From Escherichia coli (lineage in GTDB: Bacteria; Pseudomonadota; Gammaproteobacteria; Enterobacterales; Enterobacteriaceae), in NCBI RefSeq assembly GCF_044647545.1, contig NZ_CP172818.1: a DNA stretch of 64,000 nt; one strand, written 5' to 3'. The translations under genes were made by a program, and so were the position numbers. Shown one piece after another: positions 1-13,645 of this stretch (the first letter of the stretch is position 1; the number at the start of each line of letters is the position of its first letter). The notes beneath the pieces are model-generated. The model searched no databases, was not told the origin of the DNA, and saw only the letters and a program-made list of their open reading frames with translations.

Positions 1-461
1 TCCATGCACAATGCGCGAGCGATCGCCACACGCTGCTGCTGACCGCCGGAAAGCTGCGCCGGAAACTTATTGGCATGAGCGGAAAGCCCGACGCGCTCCA
101 GCAATTTCAATGCTTTTTCACGAGCGGGGGCTTTATCGCGTTTAAGCACTTTCACCTGCGCCAGGGTCAGGTTTTCAATAATCGACAAATGGGGGAACAA
201 CTCGAAATGCTGGAACACCATCCCGACGCGGGAACGCAGCTTTGCCAGATCGGTTTTCTTATCGTTAACCACGATACCATCGACGGTAATTTCACCTTGC
301 TGCACCGGTTCGAGGCCGTTGACGGTTTTAATCAGCGTTGATTTGCCGGAACCAGACGGGCCGCAAACCACCACCACTTCGCCTTTTTTCACTTCGGTTG
401 AGCAGTCGGTCAGCACCTGAAAGTGACCATACCATTTTGAAACATTTTTCAGGGTAATCAT
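1..461 (-). CDS. gltL: Glutamate/aspartate ABC transporter ATP-binding protein, 3' end truncated by window edge
   Basis: Reverse-strand translation from ATG at 459-461 gives Walker A (GPSGSGKST) and ABC signature (LSGGQQQR); start overlaps gltK stop (TAATG); position in gltIJKL operon. Confidence 0.85.
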   Translation of the reverse strand, partial: MITLKNVSKWYGHFQVLTDCSTEVKKGEVVVVCGPSGSGKSTLIKTVNGLEPVQQGEITVDGIVVNDKKTDLAKLRSRVGMVFQHFELFPHLSIIENLTLAQVKVLKRDKAPAREKALKLLERVGLSAHANKFPAQLSGGQQQRVAIARALCM

Positions 462-1135
462 TATGCTGTCCTTCTTTTCAAGTAGCTGACCAACAACGAT
501 GCGCTAAGGCTAATAACGAAATAAACAAATCCGGCAAACAGGATCATCTCGACCTGCGTACCATCACGCTCACCAATGGTTGAGGCGGTACGGAAGAAAT
601 CGGCCAGAGATAACACATACACCAGTGAGGTATCCTGGAACAGTACGATGCCCTGAGTGAGCAGAAGCGGCACCATCGCGCGGAAAGCCTGCGGCAGAAT
701 AATCAGTTTCATCGACTGCCAGTGAGTCATCCCCAACGCCAGCGCGGCGCTCGACTGACCACGGGAAATACTTTGAATACCGGCACGGATAATCTCTGAA
801 TAGTAGGCCGCTTCAAACATCGAAAACGCCACCATCGCCGAGATTAAACGGATATCATTTTTTGGCGATAATCCCAGCACGTTTTGCAGAAAACCCGGCA
901 CAATCAGGTAAAACCACAGCAAAACCATAACTAAAGGAATCGAGCGGAATACGTTAACGTAGGCTTTGGCAAACCACGCTACGGGCGCAAAGCTGGACAA
1001 GCGCATCACCGCCAGCATGGTGCCCCACAAAATACCAATCACGACTGCCGTGACGGTGATTTTCAGGGTGATCACCAGCCCATCCAGCAGATACGGCAGG
1101 GAAGGAACAATGGAACTCCAGTCAAACTCGTACAT
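461..1135 (-). CDS. gltK: Glutamate/aspartate ABC transporter permease
   Basis: 224 aa ORF, polar amino-acid permease family, operon context. Confidence 0.9.
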
Positions 1136-1875
1136 TATTTGCCCCCCATGTTGCCGGGCAGGCGAACTTTACGTTCAACCAGCGTCATCACCAGCATGAT
1201 AAAAGCGTTAATCAACACATACGCAAGCGTAATGGCGGTAAACGACTCCCAGGCGTGAGCGGAGTAATCGAGTAATTTACCCGCCTGCGCCGCCATATCT
1301 ACCAGACCGATAGTCGAGGCGATGGCGGAGTTTTTCACCAGGTTCATCATCTCGGAGGTCATCGGCGGGACGATAACGCGATAAGCGTTAGGCAACAGTA
1401 CGTAGCGGTAAGCCTGCGGTAGCGTCAGCCCCATCGCCAGCGCGGCATTCTTCTGCCCACGCGGCAGCGACTGAATAGCGGCGCGTACCTGTTCGCAAAC
1501 ACGGGCGGCGGTAAACAGCCCCAGGCAAAGCATGGATGAAAGGAAAAACTGAATATTGGGATCCAGCTCGGCCTTAAACCACATGCCGATTTTCTCCGGC
1601 AGCAGCTCCGGGATCACCAGATACCAGGTAAAGAATTGCACAATCAACGGCACGTTGCGGAACAGTTCGACATACAACGTACCCAGACCGGAGAGAAAAC
1701 GGTTTGGAACGGTACGTAAAATGCCGAAAAATGAACCGACGAGGAAAGCGATAATCCAGGCGCAGATCGACAAAGCGATCGTCACCTGAAAGCCACTCCA
1801 GATCCAACCAAGATAGGTGGTGTTGCCGAACGGGGCTTGTTGTAAAAAAATACCCCAGTTCCAGTCTATAGACAT
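1135..1875 (-). CDS. gltJ: Glutamate/aspartate ABC transporter permease
   Basis: 246 aa ORF, overlapping start/stop with gltK. Confidence 0.9.
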
Positions 1876-1885
1876 AAATCTACTC

Positions 1886-1921
1886 CAGAAAAAAGAGGGT
1901 AGCAGCGTTAACTGCTACCCT
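1886..1921 (-). terminator. Intrinsic terminator in gltI-gltJ spacer
   Basis: Hairpin gagggtagcag/ctgctaccctc followed by U-run on minus strand. Confidence 0.6.
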
Positions 1922-2044
1922 CGAAGATTGTTACCCAGCGTATTGCGGTTTTCAGGCCCGATGGGGAACGACCACCAGGCGTATAGTCTGTCCGTGCTAC
2001 GTAACAATCGAGAGGGCTGGAATTTCCGCCCCTGGTTCTTGTAA
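1886..2044 (-). ncRNA. sroC: SroC sRNA (processed from gltI-gltJ intergenic region)
   Basis: Position between gltI stop and gltJ start ending at the intergenic terminator; boundaries approximate, from established knowledge. Confidence 0.4.
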
Positions 2045-2953
2045 TTAGTTCAGTGCCTTGTCATTCGGTTCTTTGAACAGTGCTTTCATTTCGTCTGACA
2101 GTTCGAAATTCATGTTCAGGTTTTTCGGCGGAATTGGGTTTTTGAACCACTTATCAAACCATTTTTCCGCTTCACCGGAGGTCTGCACCTGAGCGATAGT
2201 GTCATCCATCAGCTTTTTGAACTGCGGATCGTCTTTACGCAACATGCAACCGTAGGCTTCCTGAGACTGCGGCTTGCCGACGATTTCCCAGTTGTCTGGT
2301 TTCTTCGCTTTCGCACGTTCACCGGCCAGCAGGGCATCATCCATCATAAAGGCAACGGCACGACCGCTTTCCAGGGTGCGGAAAGAGTCACCGTGATCTT
2401 TGGCGCTGATGATGCGCATGTTCATTTTTTGCTCTTCATTCAGTTTGTTGAGCAAAACTTCAGAGGTGGTGCCGGAAGTGACTACGACGGCTTTGTCTTT
2501 CAGATCGGCAAAATCTTTAATATCGCCGCCTTTTTTTGTCAGCAGGCGCGTACCGACCACGAAAATAGTGTCGGAGAAAGCCGCCTGTTTTTGGCGTTCG
2601 ACGTTGTTGGTGGTAGAACCGCATTCAAAATCGAAAGTGCCGTTTTGCAGCAGTGGAATACGGTTTTGTGAGGTGATCGGAATCAATTTCACCTGTAAGT
2701 CTGGTTTGTTGAGTTTCTTTTTCACTGCTTCAACAATGGCGTTGGAGTAATCCTGCGAGTAGCCCACCACTTTTTGCTGATTGTCGTAATAAGAGAAAGG
2801 TACTGAAGATTCACGGTGACCGACGACAATCACGCCGTTTTTGGCGATTTTGTCCAGCGTGCTGCCTGCTGCCGGGGCGGCGTCATCTGCCTGTGCCAGT
2901 CCTGCGGAAAGCGCCAGGGCCAGGATTGCTGTGGCAGGTTTACGTAATTGCAT
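2045..2953 (-). CDS. gltI: Glutamate/aspartate periplasmic binding protein
   Basis: ORF 2045..2959; signal peptide MQLRKPATAILALALSAGLAQA; 302 aa from second Met. Confidence 0.9.
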   Translation of the reverse strand: MQLRKPATAILALALSAGLAQADDAAPAAGSTLDKIAKNGVIVVGHRESSVPFSYYDNQQKVVGYSQDYSNAIVEAVKKKLNKPDLQVKLIPITSQNRIPLLQNGTFDFECGSTTNNVERQKQAAFSDTIFVVGTRLLTKKGGDIKDFADLKDKAVVVTSGTTSEVLLNKLNEEQKMNMRIISAKDHGDSFRTLESGRAVAFMMDDALLAGERAKAKKPDNWEIVGKPQSQEAYGCMLRKDDPQFKKLMDDTIAQVQTSGEAEKWFDKWFKNPIPPKNLNMNFELSDEMKALFKEPNDKALN

Positions 2954-3050
2954 ATCCAACTCCTTTATCTTCTGCGTTAAAAACGCATGGATACCCGTTG
3001 TGAGTGTTTGTGTTGTTATCTCTGCGACTTTTTGTGCGGTTGTGTTTTGG

Positions 3051-3082
<32 letters not shown>

Positions 3083-3649
3083 TTAGGTAACATTTAGTTT
3101 GGATAAATGTAAAGGTATTGCTGTTTTATTGTTTGTTTTTGCGAGATGCGCCGCACCATTCCGAAGCAAAATTCTTAAACTGCACCTTTTTGGTGCTACC
3201 GCTGATTTGTGGTGGTGCAACCCGGTTGCGTCGCGGTTGATTTCATTGCTTACACAGTAAATAAAGCAACTTACATGCCAAAAAATACTTAGGGGTGCAT
3301 TAATTACGATTGTAATTTCAGTTTGAAAAAGTCATATTTCGGACAGTGTTAACTTTTCGGTGTGGGAATTTTGCCGGGATGATAACTACACACGGGAAAA
3401 TGTTTTTTACTAGTCTTTTCAAGGAAAAATCACTTTATGTCTGCATCTTCGGTTAAGCCGTTAAATGTTCAATTACCCGCAATAACCCTGATCCTTTTTG
3501 CGCTCTGTGTTGGGATATTTTGTTACCTCGCACAATGGATGAGTTACAAAAAAGTCAATAAATCCGCACTCATCCATCTCGGCGCTAACTTTCTCTCTCT
3601 CACGTTGTCGGGTAAACCCTGGCGTTTATTTAGCAGTGTCTTTTTACAG

Positions 3650-5060
3650 TATTTTTTCTCTTTTATAGATATATATTTTTGCACTCTGGTTAGGGGGGAG
3701 GGGGGGAAGGGAAAATGGGGAAAAGGGGATCCCTATTGTTTGCCTTTTTCTCTCGGGTTTGTGTGGTGAGCACATCGTCTTGTGTTATGCGCGAAAAAAA
3801 AGAGAAAAGATAGATAGGTGGGGGGGCCGGGGGAAAAAAGGAAAAAAAGGGGGGGCGGTAAGAAAAAAACACTTCTTTAGGGGGGAGAACACAATAAAAA
3901 ACAGCGGCGAGGTTTTTTCCTTTTTGGTGGGGTGGCGCTAACGTTGTGTTGCGGCCCGGGAAAAAGAGAAAAAAAAAGCCTCTTCAATGGCGGGGCCGTG
4001 GGTGGGGGGGGGGGTTGGGTGGGGGGGGGCCCGGTTAGGTGGGACAAAACCGTTTCGTAAGGAAGGGCGAGTTTTTTGTGGCTCTTCTTTTCTCCGGCGG
4101 GGTATTTCGGGTGTGCAGCAGCAGAATGATGAAAAATTTTTTTAAAATAGGGGAAAACCGCGTGAAAAGTTTTTTTCCCAGGAGAATAAACAAAAGGAGC
4201 GAAAAAAAAAACAACAATTTAGGGGGGAGGGCAAAGCCCCCACCGAAACATTATCCGCTCCGGTAAGTCGTGAGGAGGCCAGTGGTGATTTACTCGCTGA
4301 GATTGCCGATAACCATGATATGGCGATCAATCGGGATGGTAATACGTTATATGCCGCAAATGAAAACACGAACAGTATTTTTTTTTTCGACCTCGGACAA
4401 AAGAAAATCTCCCATACTTTTATACCGCCCATAGCAAAAAAAAAAAAACACAAAAATTGTGGGGTCTGTAAAAATAAGGGGGTAAGATGGCGGTGGTTAA
4501 GCCCGAAAAAAAGGTTTTTTTATCCACTTTTATTTAAAATGAATGCGTGATCGTTAATAAAGGGGCGGAGGGGGGGGATAATTCAGTCAATAACCACCTG
4601 CACACATCCTGACAGTTTTATCCTCTCGTGGAATGAAAAAAAAGCTGGGTGAATAATGCAACCAATAAAATGTATTTATTCATCTATTGATTTATTAACT
4701 TATAAGGAAGGAGATGCCGCCCGAAAAAAAAAAAACGGGGGGGGGAGGAGGGGAAAAAGACGCCCGTGTGATATTACTCTCCGCGGTAAAAAAACATTGT
4801 TGATACCGCTTGGATTGAGAGAAAGCATATTCGAATCAATAACATCACGAATCATAAAGTAGAATTTCCCACATGTGATGGGTGTGGTGTCGTTGTTGTG
4901 ATGGGAGTATGATAACGAAAAAATAATAGTATTTTTATCGATAATATCGAGGGTATACGAGTAAAAGTTTAAGGATAGAAAAAAAAGAAGCAAAGATCAA
5001 AAGGGAGTGGTGAAACCGTTATCTCTATTAGGTTGAGAGGCAGGAGTGTAAATAGTTGTG
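3650..5060. repeat. Low-complexity purine homopolymer-rich block (G-runs to 11, A-runs to 12), no coherent ORF
   Basis: Runs of G and A interleaved with short AT-rich stretches; ORF-track peptides here are homopolymer translations (K/G/F runs). Confidence 0.8.
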
Positions 5061-5423
5061 TTTTGGTCTGGATGGCAAAGGGATTGTAACCTTTTTTAAT
5101 ATAAAGCCGGGGAAAAGATTGGCGGTTTTTCTCCCCATAACTTTTATTCTTCTCTGTTTTTCAGCGGATGGTAGAAAGATATTTGTTATGGCGAAGAACG
5201 GGTTAATCCAAATGGACAGGACGCGCTCGCTTGATCCGCAGGCAATTATTCGGCATCCCCAATATGGTGATGTGGCTTGTATCCCTGAACCGTAAGAAAA
5301 AGGGGCATGATAATCACGCCCGAAGTAATGAGAAAGTACGTTTTGTTGATACCGGATGCGGTGTTAACGGTTTATTTAGCCTGCAAAAATGATGCAATTT
5401 TGCAGGCCAGCGCATCATTTACA

Positions 5424-6965
5424 TCAACGTTTACGTCGCTGACGCAGACTCATCAACACAGCGGCAAAACCAAACAGCGCCGTAAGCACCCACAGCGGCC
5501 AGTTGCCGGTACGTGCGTACGGTGTGAGTCCGGTAGTCGGCGTCACGTTAGTGGTCAACACTTCGCGGGTGAACTGCGGGATCATTGCCTGAATCTCACC
5601 CTGCGGGCCAATCACCGCCGTAATACCGTTGTTGGTGCTACGCAGCAATGGGCGCGCCAGCTCCAACGCACGCATTCGCGCCATCTGGAAGTGCTGCCAT
5701 GGACCAATAGACTTACCAAACCACGCATCGTTGGAGATAGTCAGCAGATAGTCGGTATCCGGGCGGAAGTTATCGCGCACTTGCTCGCCGAGAATGATCT
5801 CGTAGCAAATAGCCGCAGTAAGCTCAATACCATTTACCGACAGCGGCGGCTGGATATATGGCCCACGGCTGAACGACGACATCGGCAGATCAAAGAACGG
5901 TGCTAACGGACGCAGAATCGACTCCAGCGGGACAAACTCGCCAAACGGCACCAGATGGTTTTTGTTATAGCGATCGGCTGATTCATAGCTGTACGGTGCG
6001 CCTTTACCCAGTGTGATGATGGTGTTGTAGGTATCGTAGCGGTTCTGCTTATTGAGACGCGCGTCGACAATCCCGGTGACCAGCGAGCTACCTTTATCGC
6101 GCAACTCACCGTCCAGAGCTTTGAGGAACGGTTGCTGATTAATTTCCAGATCGGTTATCGCCGACTCCGGCCAGATAATCAACGATGATTTGCCCATCAG
6201 CGGTGCCGTTGCGTTGTAGTAAATCTTCAGCGTATTAAGAAGCTGGCCTTCGTCCCATTTCAGCGATTGCGGAATATCGCCCTGAACCATCGAAACCTGA
6301 ATGGTTTTCTCCGGTTGCGGGGTAAACCACTGGATGTAACGCAGCGGGAAGGGTAGGGCAAACAGCACGACGGCCACCACCAGCGGACGCCAGTTGCGTT
6401 TGACTAACGCCAGTGCCAGCAGGCCGCTAACCATCATAAGCAGGAAGTTAATGGCTTCCACGCCCATTAGCGGTGCCAGCCCTTTTAACGGGCCATCAAT
6501 CTGGCTATAGCCGAACTGTAACCACGGGAAGCCAGTCAGCACCCAACCGCGCAGAAACTCGGTCACTTGCCAGAGAGCAGGAGCGGCAATCGCCACGCGC
6601 AGCCAGGTGGTTTTCGGCCACAGACGCGACAGCACGCCAGCAAACAGTCCGGTATACAGCGACAAATACGCCGCCAGCAGTACCACCAGGAAGATGTTAA
6701 CCGGGCCAGGCATTCCGCCAAAGGTCGCGATGCTGACATAGACCCAGTTAATACCGCTGCCAAAGAGACCAAATCCCCAGCAAAAGCCAATAGCGGCAGA
6801 CTGGAGTGGACGGCGGTTAAAGGTCAGCGCCTGAAGCCCCATCAGCGAAATAATCGCCGCAGGCCAGACATCGTAAGGAGAGAAGGCCAGCGTTCCGCAG
6901 GCACCGAATAATAACGCCAGCAGCAGGCGAATGCGCTGGCGTTCAATTAATGAGGCAAAAGCCAT
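5424..6965 (-). CDS. lnt: Apolipoprotein N-acyltransferase
   Basis: 513 aa ORF, N-terminal membrane segments plus nitrilase-like domain, context lnt-corC-ybeY-ybeZ. Confidence 0.9.
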
Positions 6966-12513: not shown

Positions 12514-12588
12514 TGGCTGGGGTACGAGGATTCGAACCTCGGAATGCCGGAATCAGAATCCGGTGCCTTACCGCTTGGCGATACCCCA
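12514..12588 (-). tRNA. glnX: tRNA-Gln (anticodon CUG)
   Basis: 75-nt cloverleaf sequence read on reverse strand, anticodon loop UUCUGAU, 3' CCA encoded. Confidence 0.9.
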
Positions 12589-12625
12589 ACTGGGTGCACT
12601 TACAAGGTAAGCGTCTTGAATAAAT

Positions 12626-12700
12626 TGGCTGGGGTACGAGGATTCGAACCTCGGAATGCCGGAATCAGAATCCGGTGCCTTACCGCTTGGCGATACCCCA
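12626..12700 (-). tRNA. glnV: tRNA-Gln (anticodon CUG)
   Basis: Identical copy of the preceding tRNA-Gln(CUG). Confidence 0.9.
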
Positions 12701-12748
12701 ACAAATTGGTTTTTGAATTTGCCGAACTTATTCGACACATTCAGAATT

Positions 12749-12825
12749 TGGTGGCTACGACGGGATTCGAACCTGTGACCCCATCATTATGAGTGATGTG
12801 CTCTAACCAACTGAGCTACGTAGCC
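12749..12825 (-). tRNA. metU: tRNA-Met elongator (anticodon CAU)
   Basis: 77-nt tRNA, anticodon loop with CAU, 3' CCA. Confidence 0.9.
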
Positions 12826-12840
12826 AGATTGTTTCTTCGA

Positions 12841-12915
12841 TGGCTGGGGTACCTGGATTCGAACCAGGGAATGCCGGTATCAAAAACCGGTGCCTTACCG
12901 CTTGGCGATACCCCA
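12841..12915 (-). tRNA. glnW: tRNA-Gln (anticodon UUG)
   Basis: 75-nt tRNA, anticodon loop UUUUGAU. Confidence 0.9.
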
Positions 12916-12949
12916 ATAACCGGGCGGTGAACCGCTTACTCGAAGAAGA

Positions 12950-13024
12950 TGGCTGGGGTACCTGGATTCGAACCAGGGAATGCCGGTATCAAAAACCGGT
13001 GCCTTACCGCTTGGCGATACCCCA
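12950..13024 (-). tRNA. glnU: tRNA-Gln (anticodon UUG)
   Basis: Identical copy of tRNA-Gln(UUG). Confidence 0.9.
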
Positions 13025-13047
13025 TCCGTACAACGCTTTCTGGTGAA

Positions 13048-13132
13048 TGGTGCGGGAGGCGAGACTTGAACTCGCACACCTTGCGGCGCCAGAACCTAAA
13101 TCTGGTGCGTCTACCAATTTCGCCACTCCCGC
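13048..13132 (-). tRNA. leuW: tRNA-Leu (anticodon UAG)
   Basis: 85-nt class II tRNA with long variable arm. Confidence 0.9.
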
Positions 13133-13140
13133 AAAAAAGA

Positions 13141-13217
13141 TGGTGGCTACGACGGGATTCGAACCTGTGACCCCATCATTATGAGTGATGTGCTCTAACC
13201 AACTGAGCTACGTAGCC
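13141..13217 (-). tRNA. metT: tRNA-Met elongator (anticodon CAU)
   Basis: Identical to the metU copy at 12749..12825. Confidence 0.9.

Positions 13218-13586: not shown

Positions 13587-13645
<59 letters not shown>

Follow-up and report, generated by a model that had tools for sequence, protein, structure and literature searches.

SroC is a textbook mRNA-derived RNA sponge. It has been described as a stable decay fragment of the gltIJKL mRNA that carries a 5'-monophosphate and begins inside the coding sequence of gltI, at a place without a transcription start site (PMC4474525). This 5' end is made by RNase E with the help of Hfq and by 5'-end sensing, and SroC is lost when RNase E is inactivated (PMC4474525). 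The 3' end comes from a conserved, leaky Rho-independent terminator in the spacer between gltI and gltJ (PMC4474525). Termination at this site yields a monocistronic gltI transcript, from which a stable 3' fragment is left that is SroC, the sponge of GcvB (PMC4474525, PMC9438474). Two short sites in SroC, each of 7-8 nt and separated by 14 nt, base-pair with GcvB, which leads to the decay of GcvB by RNase E (PMC4474525). The sponge activity has been demonstrated experimentally in Salmonella and for the E. coli homologue (PMC4474525, PMC9299463), and SroC-GcvB chimeras made up as much as ~70% of the GcvB reads in stationary phase in RIL-seq data (summarised in PMC9299463). The gltI-SroC transcript is both a target of GcvB and its antagonist (PMC4474525). 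SroC thereby ties the transport of glutamate and aspartate to the large set of amino-acid uptake and metabolism genes under the control of GcvB.

Two kinds of described systems are close to SroC. The small RNAs SdhX, CpxQ, NarS, MalH and OppZ are likewise derived from mRNAs by termination, within an operon or at its end, and RNase E cleavage; they are bound by Hfq and act back on the pathway to which their parental operon belongs (PMC9438474). In contrast to these, SroC is formed by an internal terminator between cistrons, and its main target is a small RNA and not an mRNA. The REP/BIME element at malE-malF resembles the SroC element in its location, as it also follows the gene of a binding protein that is the first gene of an ABC operon, and it raises the relative output of this gene. 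Yet REP elements are palindromes that occur in many copies, lack a U-run and act by blocking exonucleases, whereas the SroC element is single-copy, has a U-run and terminates transcription.

Here, we analysed a stretch of 64,000 nt (the window) from an E. coli chromosome. Its first part (positions 1-3500) is present in 5419 of the 5426 complete E. coli genomes, and the best of these matches is 99.7% identical. The glt operon is encoded on the minus strand. Its first gene is gltI (2045-2953), which encodes the periplasmic glutamate/aspartate-binding protein and is the parental gene of SroC; the assignment is based on NCBIfam (NF008063, 667 bits against a cut-off of 375) and on the RefSeq annotation of genomes that are 99.7% identical. 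The permease gene gltJ (1135-1875) was assigned from its open reading frame and from RefSeq, where it has the same position. It is followed by gltK (461-1135, NCBIfam match with 479 bits against a cut-off of 318) and by gltL, which ends at 461. On the other side of gltI, at a distance of ~2.4 kb, lies lnt (5424-6965). The spacer between gltI and gltJ comprises 169 nt (1876-2044). It is bordered by the gltI stop codon (2047..2045) and the gltJ start codon (ATG, 1875..1873), which is preceded by the Shine-Dalgarno sequence GGAG (1883..1886). An open reading frame of 75 amino acids on the plus strand (1817-2044) is antisense to the structured RNA described below, and we consider it to be a chance open reading frame.

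We found that the spacer corresponds to SroC. The Rfam model of sroC (RF00369) matches the minus strand at 2049..1887 over all of its 163 positions (1-163), with 172.6 bits compared to a gathering score of 45 and an E-value of 2.5e-36, and it was the only match at or above a gathering score when the spacer was scanned with all Rfam families. The locus is identical to the K-12 ncRNA sroC (b4763) at 162 of 163 positions and is flanked by the same genes. It lies on the strand of the operon, with its 5' end on the gltI stop codon. Both sites for the contact with GcvB are intact, and the earlier note had thus been right to read this spacer as SroC. When compared to K-12, the only difference is a G instead of an A at window position 1975 (SroC position 75). 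This position is located between the two GcvB contact sites, where the substitution changes an A-U pair into a G.U pair in the stem of the second stem-loop (SL2). The G allele is not particular to this strain, as numerous other E. coli genomes have matches of 100%. A query of 185 nt detected the sequence in all but five of the 5426 complete E. coli genomes (5421), at a median of one place per genome. Altogether, the locus agrees with the described SroC in its location, strand, length of 163 nt, structural elements, GcvB sites, terminator and 5' end. We are therefore close to certain that positions 2049..1887 on the minus strand are the E. coli sroC locus with a leaky Rho-independent terminator and a 5' end made by RNase E. 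Judging from this near-identity, the strain would be expected to express SroC in the same way as K-12.

The whole RNA is predicted to fold with -68.8 kcal/mol (z -5.2) into a first stem-loop (SL1), a long helix that encloses SL2, and the terminator. SL1 is located at 2031..2014 (SroC 19-36) and is found in both the Rfam consensus structure and the minimum-free-energy fold. SL2 is located at 1980..1956 (SroC 70-94) and consists of a stem of 9 bp and a loop of 7 nt (UCGUUCC) in the minimum-free-energy fold.

Towards its end, the spacer reads GAGGGUAGCAGUUAACGCUGCUACCCUC-UUUUUUCU on the minus strand, that is, a G+C-rich stem-loop and a U-run directly 3' of it on the transcribed strand. The stem-loop (1922..1895) has the sequence GAGGGUAGCAG(U)-UAAC-(G)CUGCUACCCUC; it consists of 11 Watson-Crick pairs and one closing U.G pair around the loop UAAC, and 7 of the 12 pairs are G-C. 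The U-run UUUUUUCU (1894..1887) starts with six U (1894..1889), continues with CU and would mark the end of transcription. When folded as a segment of 47 nt, the hairpin has an energy of -22.7 kcal/mol, compared to -8.6 +/- 2.4 kcal/mol for shuffled sequences (z = -5.9), and none of the 200 shuffles was as good. Furthermore, it ranks first in a terminator scan of window positions 1-3500. A loose terminator pattern occurs at 12 sites in these positions, where 4.9 +/- 2.3 are expected, and of these 12 only the gltI-gltJ hairpin has 12 pairs and six consecutive T. From the stem, the z-score of the fold, the top rank in the scan and the six U, we conclude that the hairpin is real. The observation of an 11-bp hairpin with a U-run in this spacer is thereby reproduced. 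Its placement directly after gltI is not, as the hairpin is found close to gltJ, with 122 nt between it and the gltI stop codon, and the U-run finishes only 13 nt ahead of the gltJ ATG.

The 3' end of SroC has been mapped in K-12 by Term-seq, where two minus-strand 3' ends 'internal to sroC' were reported at 686683 and 686689, 14 and 20 nt upstream of gltJ (PMC7815308). The first corresponds to window position 1889, the last U of the six, and the second to position 1895, the last base of the stem. In the LB 0.4 table, the end at 686683 is classified as not Rho-dependent ('No', Rho score 1.10), and its intrinsic-terminator score of 3.71 exceeds the value of 3.0 from which intrinsic termination is predicted (PMC7815308). 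As the K-12 sequence is identical to the window across the terminator part of the alignment, the hairpin and its U-run would form the 3' end of SroC by Rho-independent termination here as well. Northern blots in E. coli revealed SroC together with two larger transcripts, gltI-sroC with ~1200 nt and a product of read-through with ~2500 nt (PMC11347164). The discrete transcript with an end at about 1886, which the earlier note had anticipated, has thus in effect been seen in K-12, although its 3' end needs a small correction: the annotated end is 1887, and the Term-seq ends correspond to 1889 and 1895.

The 5' end of SroC (ACUAA, 2049..2045) overlaps the last sense codon of gltI and its UAA stop codon, and is an RNase E processing site according to the literature. 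Both the Rfam match and the K-12 annotation begin at 2049; the range of 1886-2044 that had been given before omits these first 5 nt of the RNA. In E. coli, the strongest RNase E site found by TIER-seq lies exactly at the SroC 5' end (PMC11347164), and the surroundings of the cleavage site in the window are identical to those in K-12, where this cut has been mapped. The proposal that the terminator attenuates read-through and releases SroC agrees with the published work, with one addition: the leaky terminator sets only the 3' end, and RNase E has to cut at the gltI stop codon to make the 5' end. The hairpin is the leaky terminator of SroC; both the observation and its interpretation were correct, and all of this was already known.

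Could SroC instead be a gene in its own right, transcribed from a promoter within the end of gltI? There is a precedent for such an origin in some 3'-UTR small RNAs (type I), which possess internal promoters. We give this reading next to no credence. A promoter scan, which is a weak test here, found no sigma-70-like site on the minus strand within window positions 1-3500, and the 5'-monophosphate, the lack of a transcription start site and the loss of SroC upon RNase E inactivation (PMC4474525) speak against it, as does the major TIER-seq site exactly at the 5' end (PMC11347164). The hairpin might also be merely an intercistronic stabiliser, similar to the REP element after malE, which blocks 3'-to-5' exonucleases while the 3' end arises by processing. 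The genes of binding proteins in ABC operons are often expressed differentially by means of such stabilisers (PMC4474525), and the Term-seq end equivalent to 1895 is the last base of the stem, as would be expected from exonuclease trimming. Nonetheless, we regard this explanation as very improbable. Six U follow directly 3' of the stem, with the T-run kept across all 73 sequences of the alignment described below, and the main 3' end in K-12 is at the last U, with an intrinsic score of 3.71 and without Rho dependence. Furthermore, the authors who described SroC set this locus apart from stabiliser elements and named it a leaky Rho-independent terminator (PMC4474525). As it occurs at a median of one place per genome (5421 E. 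coli genomes), the sequence does not belong to the REP/BIME elements, which are multicopy.

A third reading concerns the fold 5' of the terminator, which could in addition be a cis-acting, regulated attenuator where a factor or ligand tunes termination, and with it the ratio of GltI to GltJKL and the yield of SroC. This possibility was raised by the original authors (PMC4474525). It would fit to the many positions outside the GcvB sites that are invariant across genera and to the base of the long helix (CUCGA/UCGAG), which overlaps the foot of the terminator stem by 2-3 nt. However, no comparably stable anti-terminator fold is evident; the overlap is restricted to these 2-3 nt, and the minimum-free-energy fold keeps both helices. 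Also, no Rfam family other than sroC exceeded its gathering score in the spacer, and the conserved positions could equally serve the binding of Hfq, the positioning of RNase E or other targets of SroC, such as MgrR and fliE (PMC9438474). We thus consider a regulated attenuator unlikely, and SroC with its leaky terminator and RNase E-made 5' end is the reading that we retain.

We next describe the pairing of SroC with GcvB, which was computed against the K-12 GcvB since the gcvB gene of this strain lies outside the window. The first contact site GGACAGAC (1993..1986, SroC 57-64) lies in an internal bulge and is a perfect complement of 8 nt to GcvB 156-163 (R3/SL4). The second contact site UCGUUCC (1971..1965, SroC 79-85) makes up the entire loop of SL2 and is a perfect complement of 7 nt to GcvB 13-19 (SL1). 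The two sites are 14 nt apart, the same spacing as published. The numbering of the Salmonella SroC equals that of E. coli plus 3, and with this shift the two sites hold the published mutated positions C63 and C87 and the protected positions G61, G65 and G84. In total, there are four perfect SroC-GcvB complements of at least 7 nt, compared to 1.4 +/- 1.2 in shuffled sequences; as four were also reached in 12 of 200 shuffles, this count alone is weak evidence. The weight of the pairing lies in the fact that two of the four complements are exactly the sites that have been verified by mutation in the literature, and they have the same spacing. The other two are located within stable terminator or SL stems of both RNAs and are probably inaccessible.

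The window also contains the other half of the loop between gltI and GcvB. In the 5' UTR of gltI, a C/A-rich element GAUAACAACACAAACACUCACAAC (2997..3020 on the minus strand, -44 to -67 from the gltI ATG) is the target of the R1 region of GcvB (PMC4474525), and its predicted duplex with GcvB 61-100 has -36.3 kcal/mol. As the R1 target is kept together with the SroC sites, the known loop, with GcvB acting on gltI and gltI giving rise to the antagonist of GcvB, is intact in the window. Given its near-identical sequence, the SroC of this strain would likely trigger the decay of GcvB.

To what extent is this locus conserved? Scanning 100,044 species genomes with a pattern for the SroC core resulted in 80 loci, and their alignment comprises 73 distinct sequences. 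The loci are from Escherichia, Salmonella, Citrobacter, Enterobacter, Klebsiella, Raoultella, Kluyvera, Kosakonia, Lelliottia, Trabulsiella, Mangrovibacter and others. The fold of SroC with SL1, the long helix and SL2 is conserved among them, with compensatory double changes in 12 of the 28 predicted pairs. These are mainly located in SL2 and the inner part of the long helix, and five pairs of SL2 have such changes in 17-37 of the 73 sequences. For the terminator stem we detected no covariation, since the six core pairs (GGGUAG/CUACCC) are invariant in 73/73 enterobacterial loci; covariation thus speaks neither for nor against this helix. The T-run 3' of the stem and the start of gltJ are kept throughout, and the Shine-Dalgarno sequence of gltJ directly 3' of the SroC 3' end is also kept in the alignment. 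The GcvB site GGACAGAC is invariant in the 73 loci, but it is partly inside the search pattern that collected them, and the invariance of the SL2 loop is not independent evidence either, as this site is within the pattern. Outside the GcvB sites, the positions that are invariant across genera include, for instance, CUCGAUUG, AAUCUUCGAGGGUAG and ACUAUA, of which the last belonged to the search pattern, so that its invariance is built in.

When comparing the terminator stems, we observed that the 11-bp stem is specific to Escherichia. Most genera have the shorter hairpin GAGGGUAGC-GCU-GCUACCCU with -13.7 kcal/mol, and this is also the energy for the Salmonella SroC (Miyakoshi, Chao & Vogel 2015), compared to -22.7 kcal/mol for the longer stem of Escherichia. 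The tip of the Escherichia stem contains the insert CAGUUAACG, whereas Kluyvera has a different insert (CAGG...CC). These inserts (columns 159-172 of alignment A2) begin with CAG, which pairs with a pre-existing CUG, and result in stems of about -21 to -24 kcal/mol. They thus roughly double the predicted stability of the hairpin compared to Salmonella and Citrobacter, with the rest of SroC being nearly unchanged. One might speculate that the lengthening of the stem has retuned termination in these two genera, and with it the ratio of GltI to GltJKL and the yield of SroC, and that the invariant nucleotides outside the GcvB sites act as a regulated attenuator; we regard such a scenario as rather doubtful.

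Four SroC-like loci of other Enterobacteriaceae (L011, L049, L058 and L082) keep SL1, SL2 and both GcvB sites, but the terminator is absent from its usual distance. Downstream of SL2, L011 and L082 have a sequence that resembles an ERIC-type repeat (GTGAATCCCC...GGGGTGA), suggesting that the insertion of a repeat separated SL2 from the terminator in these two loci.

From these findings and the published work, the following course of events can be proposed for the locus. Transcription of gltIJKL would start at the gltI promoter and meet the leaky terminator just ahead of the ribosome-binding site of gltJ. Part of the polymerases would stop there and yield a monocistronic gltI transcript; the remainder would continue into gltJKL, which would be expressed only by this read-through. 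Such partial termination would result in more binding protein than membrane components. RNase E, aided by Hfq and dependent on the 5'-monophosphate, would then degrade the gltI message from its 5' side, and the decay would halt at the cleavage site on the gltI stop codon (2049), leaving the tightly folded, stable SroC of 163 nt. The internal bulge GGACAGAC and the SL2 loop UCGUUCC would pair with two distant parts of GcvB and thereby lead to its decay by RNase E. In turn, the regulon of amino-acid transport and metabolism, including gltI, would be de-repressed. In this proposal, the identity with K-12, the match to the covariance model, the stability of the hairpin, the complementarity to GcvB, and the conservation and covariation come from our analysis; the mapping of the 3' end, the processing by RNase E, the dependence on Hfq and the function as a sponge are taken from the literature. 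We find nothing in the sequence that would argue against reading it as SroC.

Another occurrence of SroC in E. coli matters only as a correct annotation. The PGAP annotation of FDAARGOS_497 (NZ_CP033850.1, L001), the closest of the genomes that we examined, has no sroC feature between gltI and gltJ. Among the 30 matches of the spacer that were listed, only gltI is annotated beneath the match, while the curated record of K-12 includes sroC. SroC thus appears to be routinely missing from automated annotation. Since the PGAP record lacks sroC and the curated K-12 record contains it, recognizing SroC from the sequence alone is a useful annotation.

Lastly, we noticed several features of the assembly. 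At positions 3051-3078, the plus strand contains a run of 28 A (28 U on the strand of gltI), 98-125 nt upstream of the gltI ATG. Two deletions of 1 nt are found beside this insertion (about -70 to -125 from the ATG) in comparison to K-12 and FDAARGOS_497. We searched for the 28-A insertion in 5,426 complete E. coli genomes and found it in none; the run is probably a sequencing or assembly artefact. If the insertion and deletions were true, they would be located in the promoter or leader region of gltI and could alter the expression of gltI and hence of SroC.

Further upstream, at positions ~3600-5200, other E. coli have an intact gene of 1878 nt for a 'rhomboid family intramembrane serine protease'. 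In the window, the identity in this region is only 53-87% per 100 nt, with ~44 gaps and many A or G homopolymers, and there is no intact open reading frame, whereas the flanks are 99-100% identical to other E. coli. This looks like low-quality sequence in the assembly rather than biological divergence. A third such feature is found at positions 13588-13645, where 49 A, one T and 8 A occur in an A/T-rich stretch just past a cluster of tRNA genes. The two A-runs and the degraded rhomboid region suggest local problems in the quality of the assembly. The cluster itself (12517-13217, minus strand) comprises seven tRNA genes with Rfam tRNA matches of 57-71 bits, and we presume from the gene order in K-12 that these are glnX-glnV-metU-glnW-glnU-leuW-metT. 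The region between gltI and lnt also differs in its arrangement from K-12 (L002 3852-5046), which has an IS5 (insH3) ~104 nt upstream of gltI and no annotated rhomboid-family gene between gltI and lnt, whereas the window at 3080-5420 has the non-K-12 arrangement, with the rhomboid-family gene present and without IS5.
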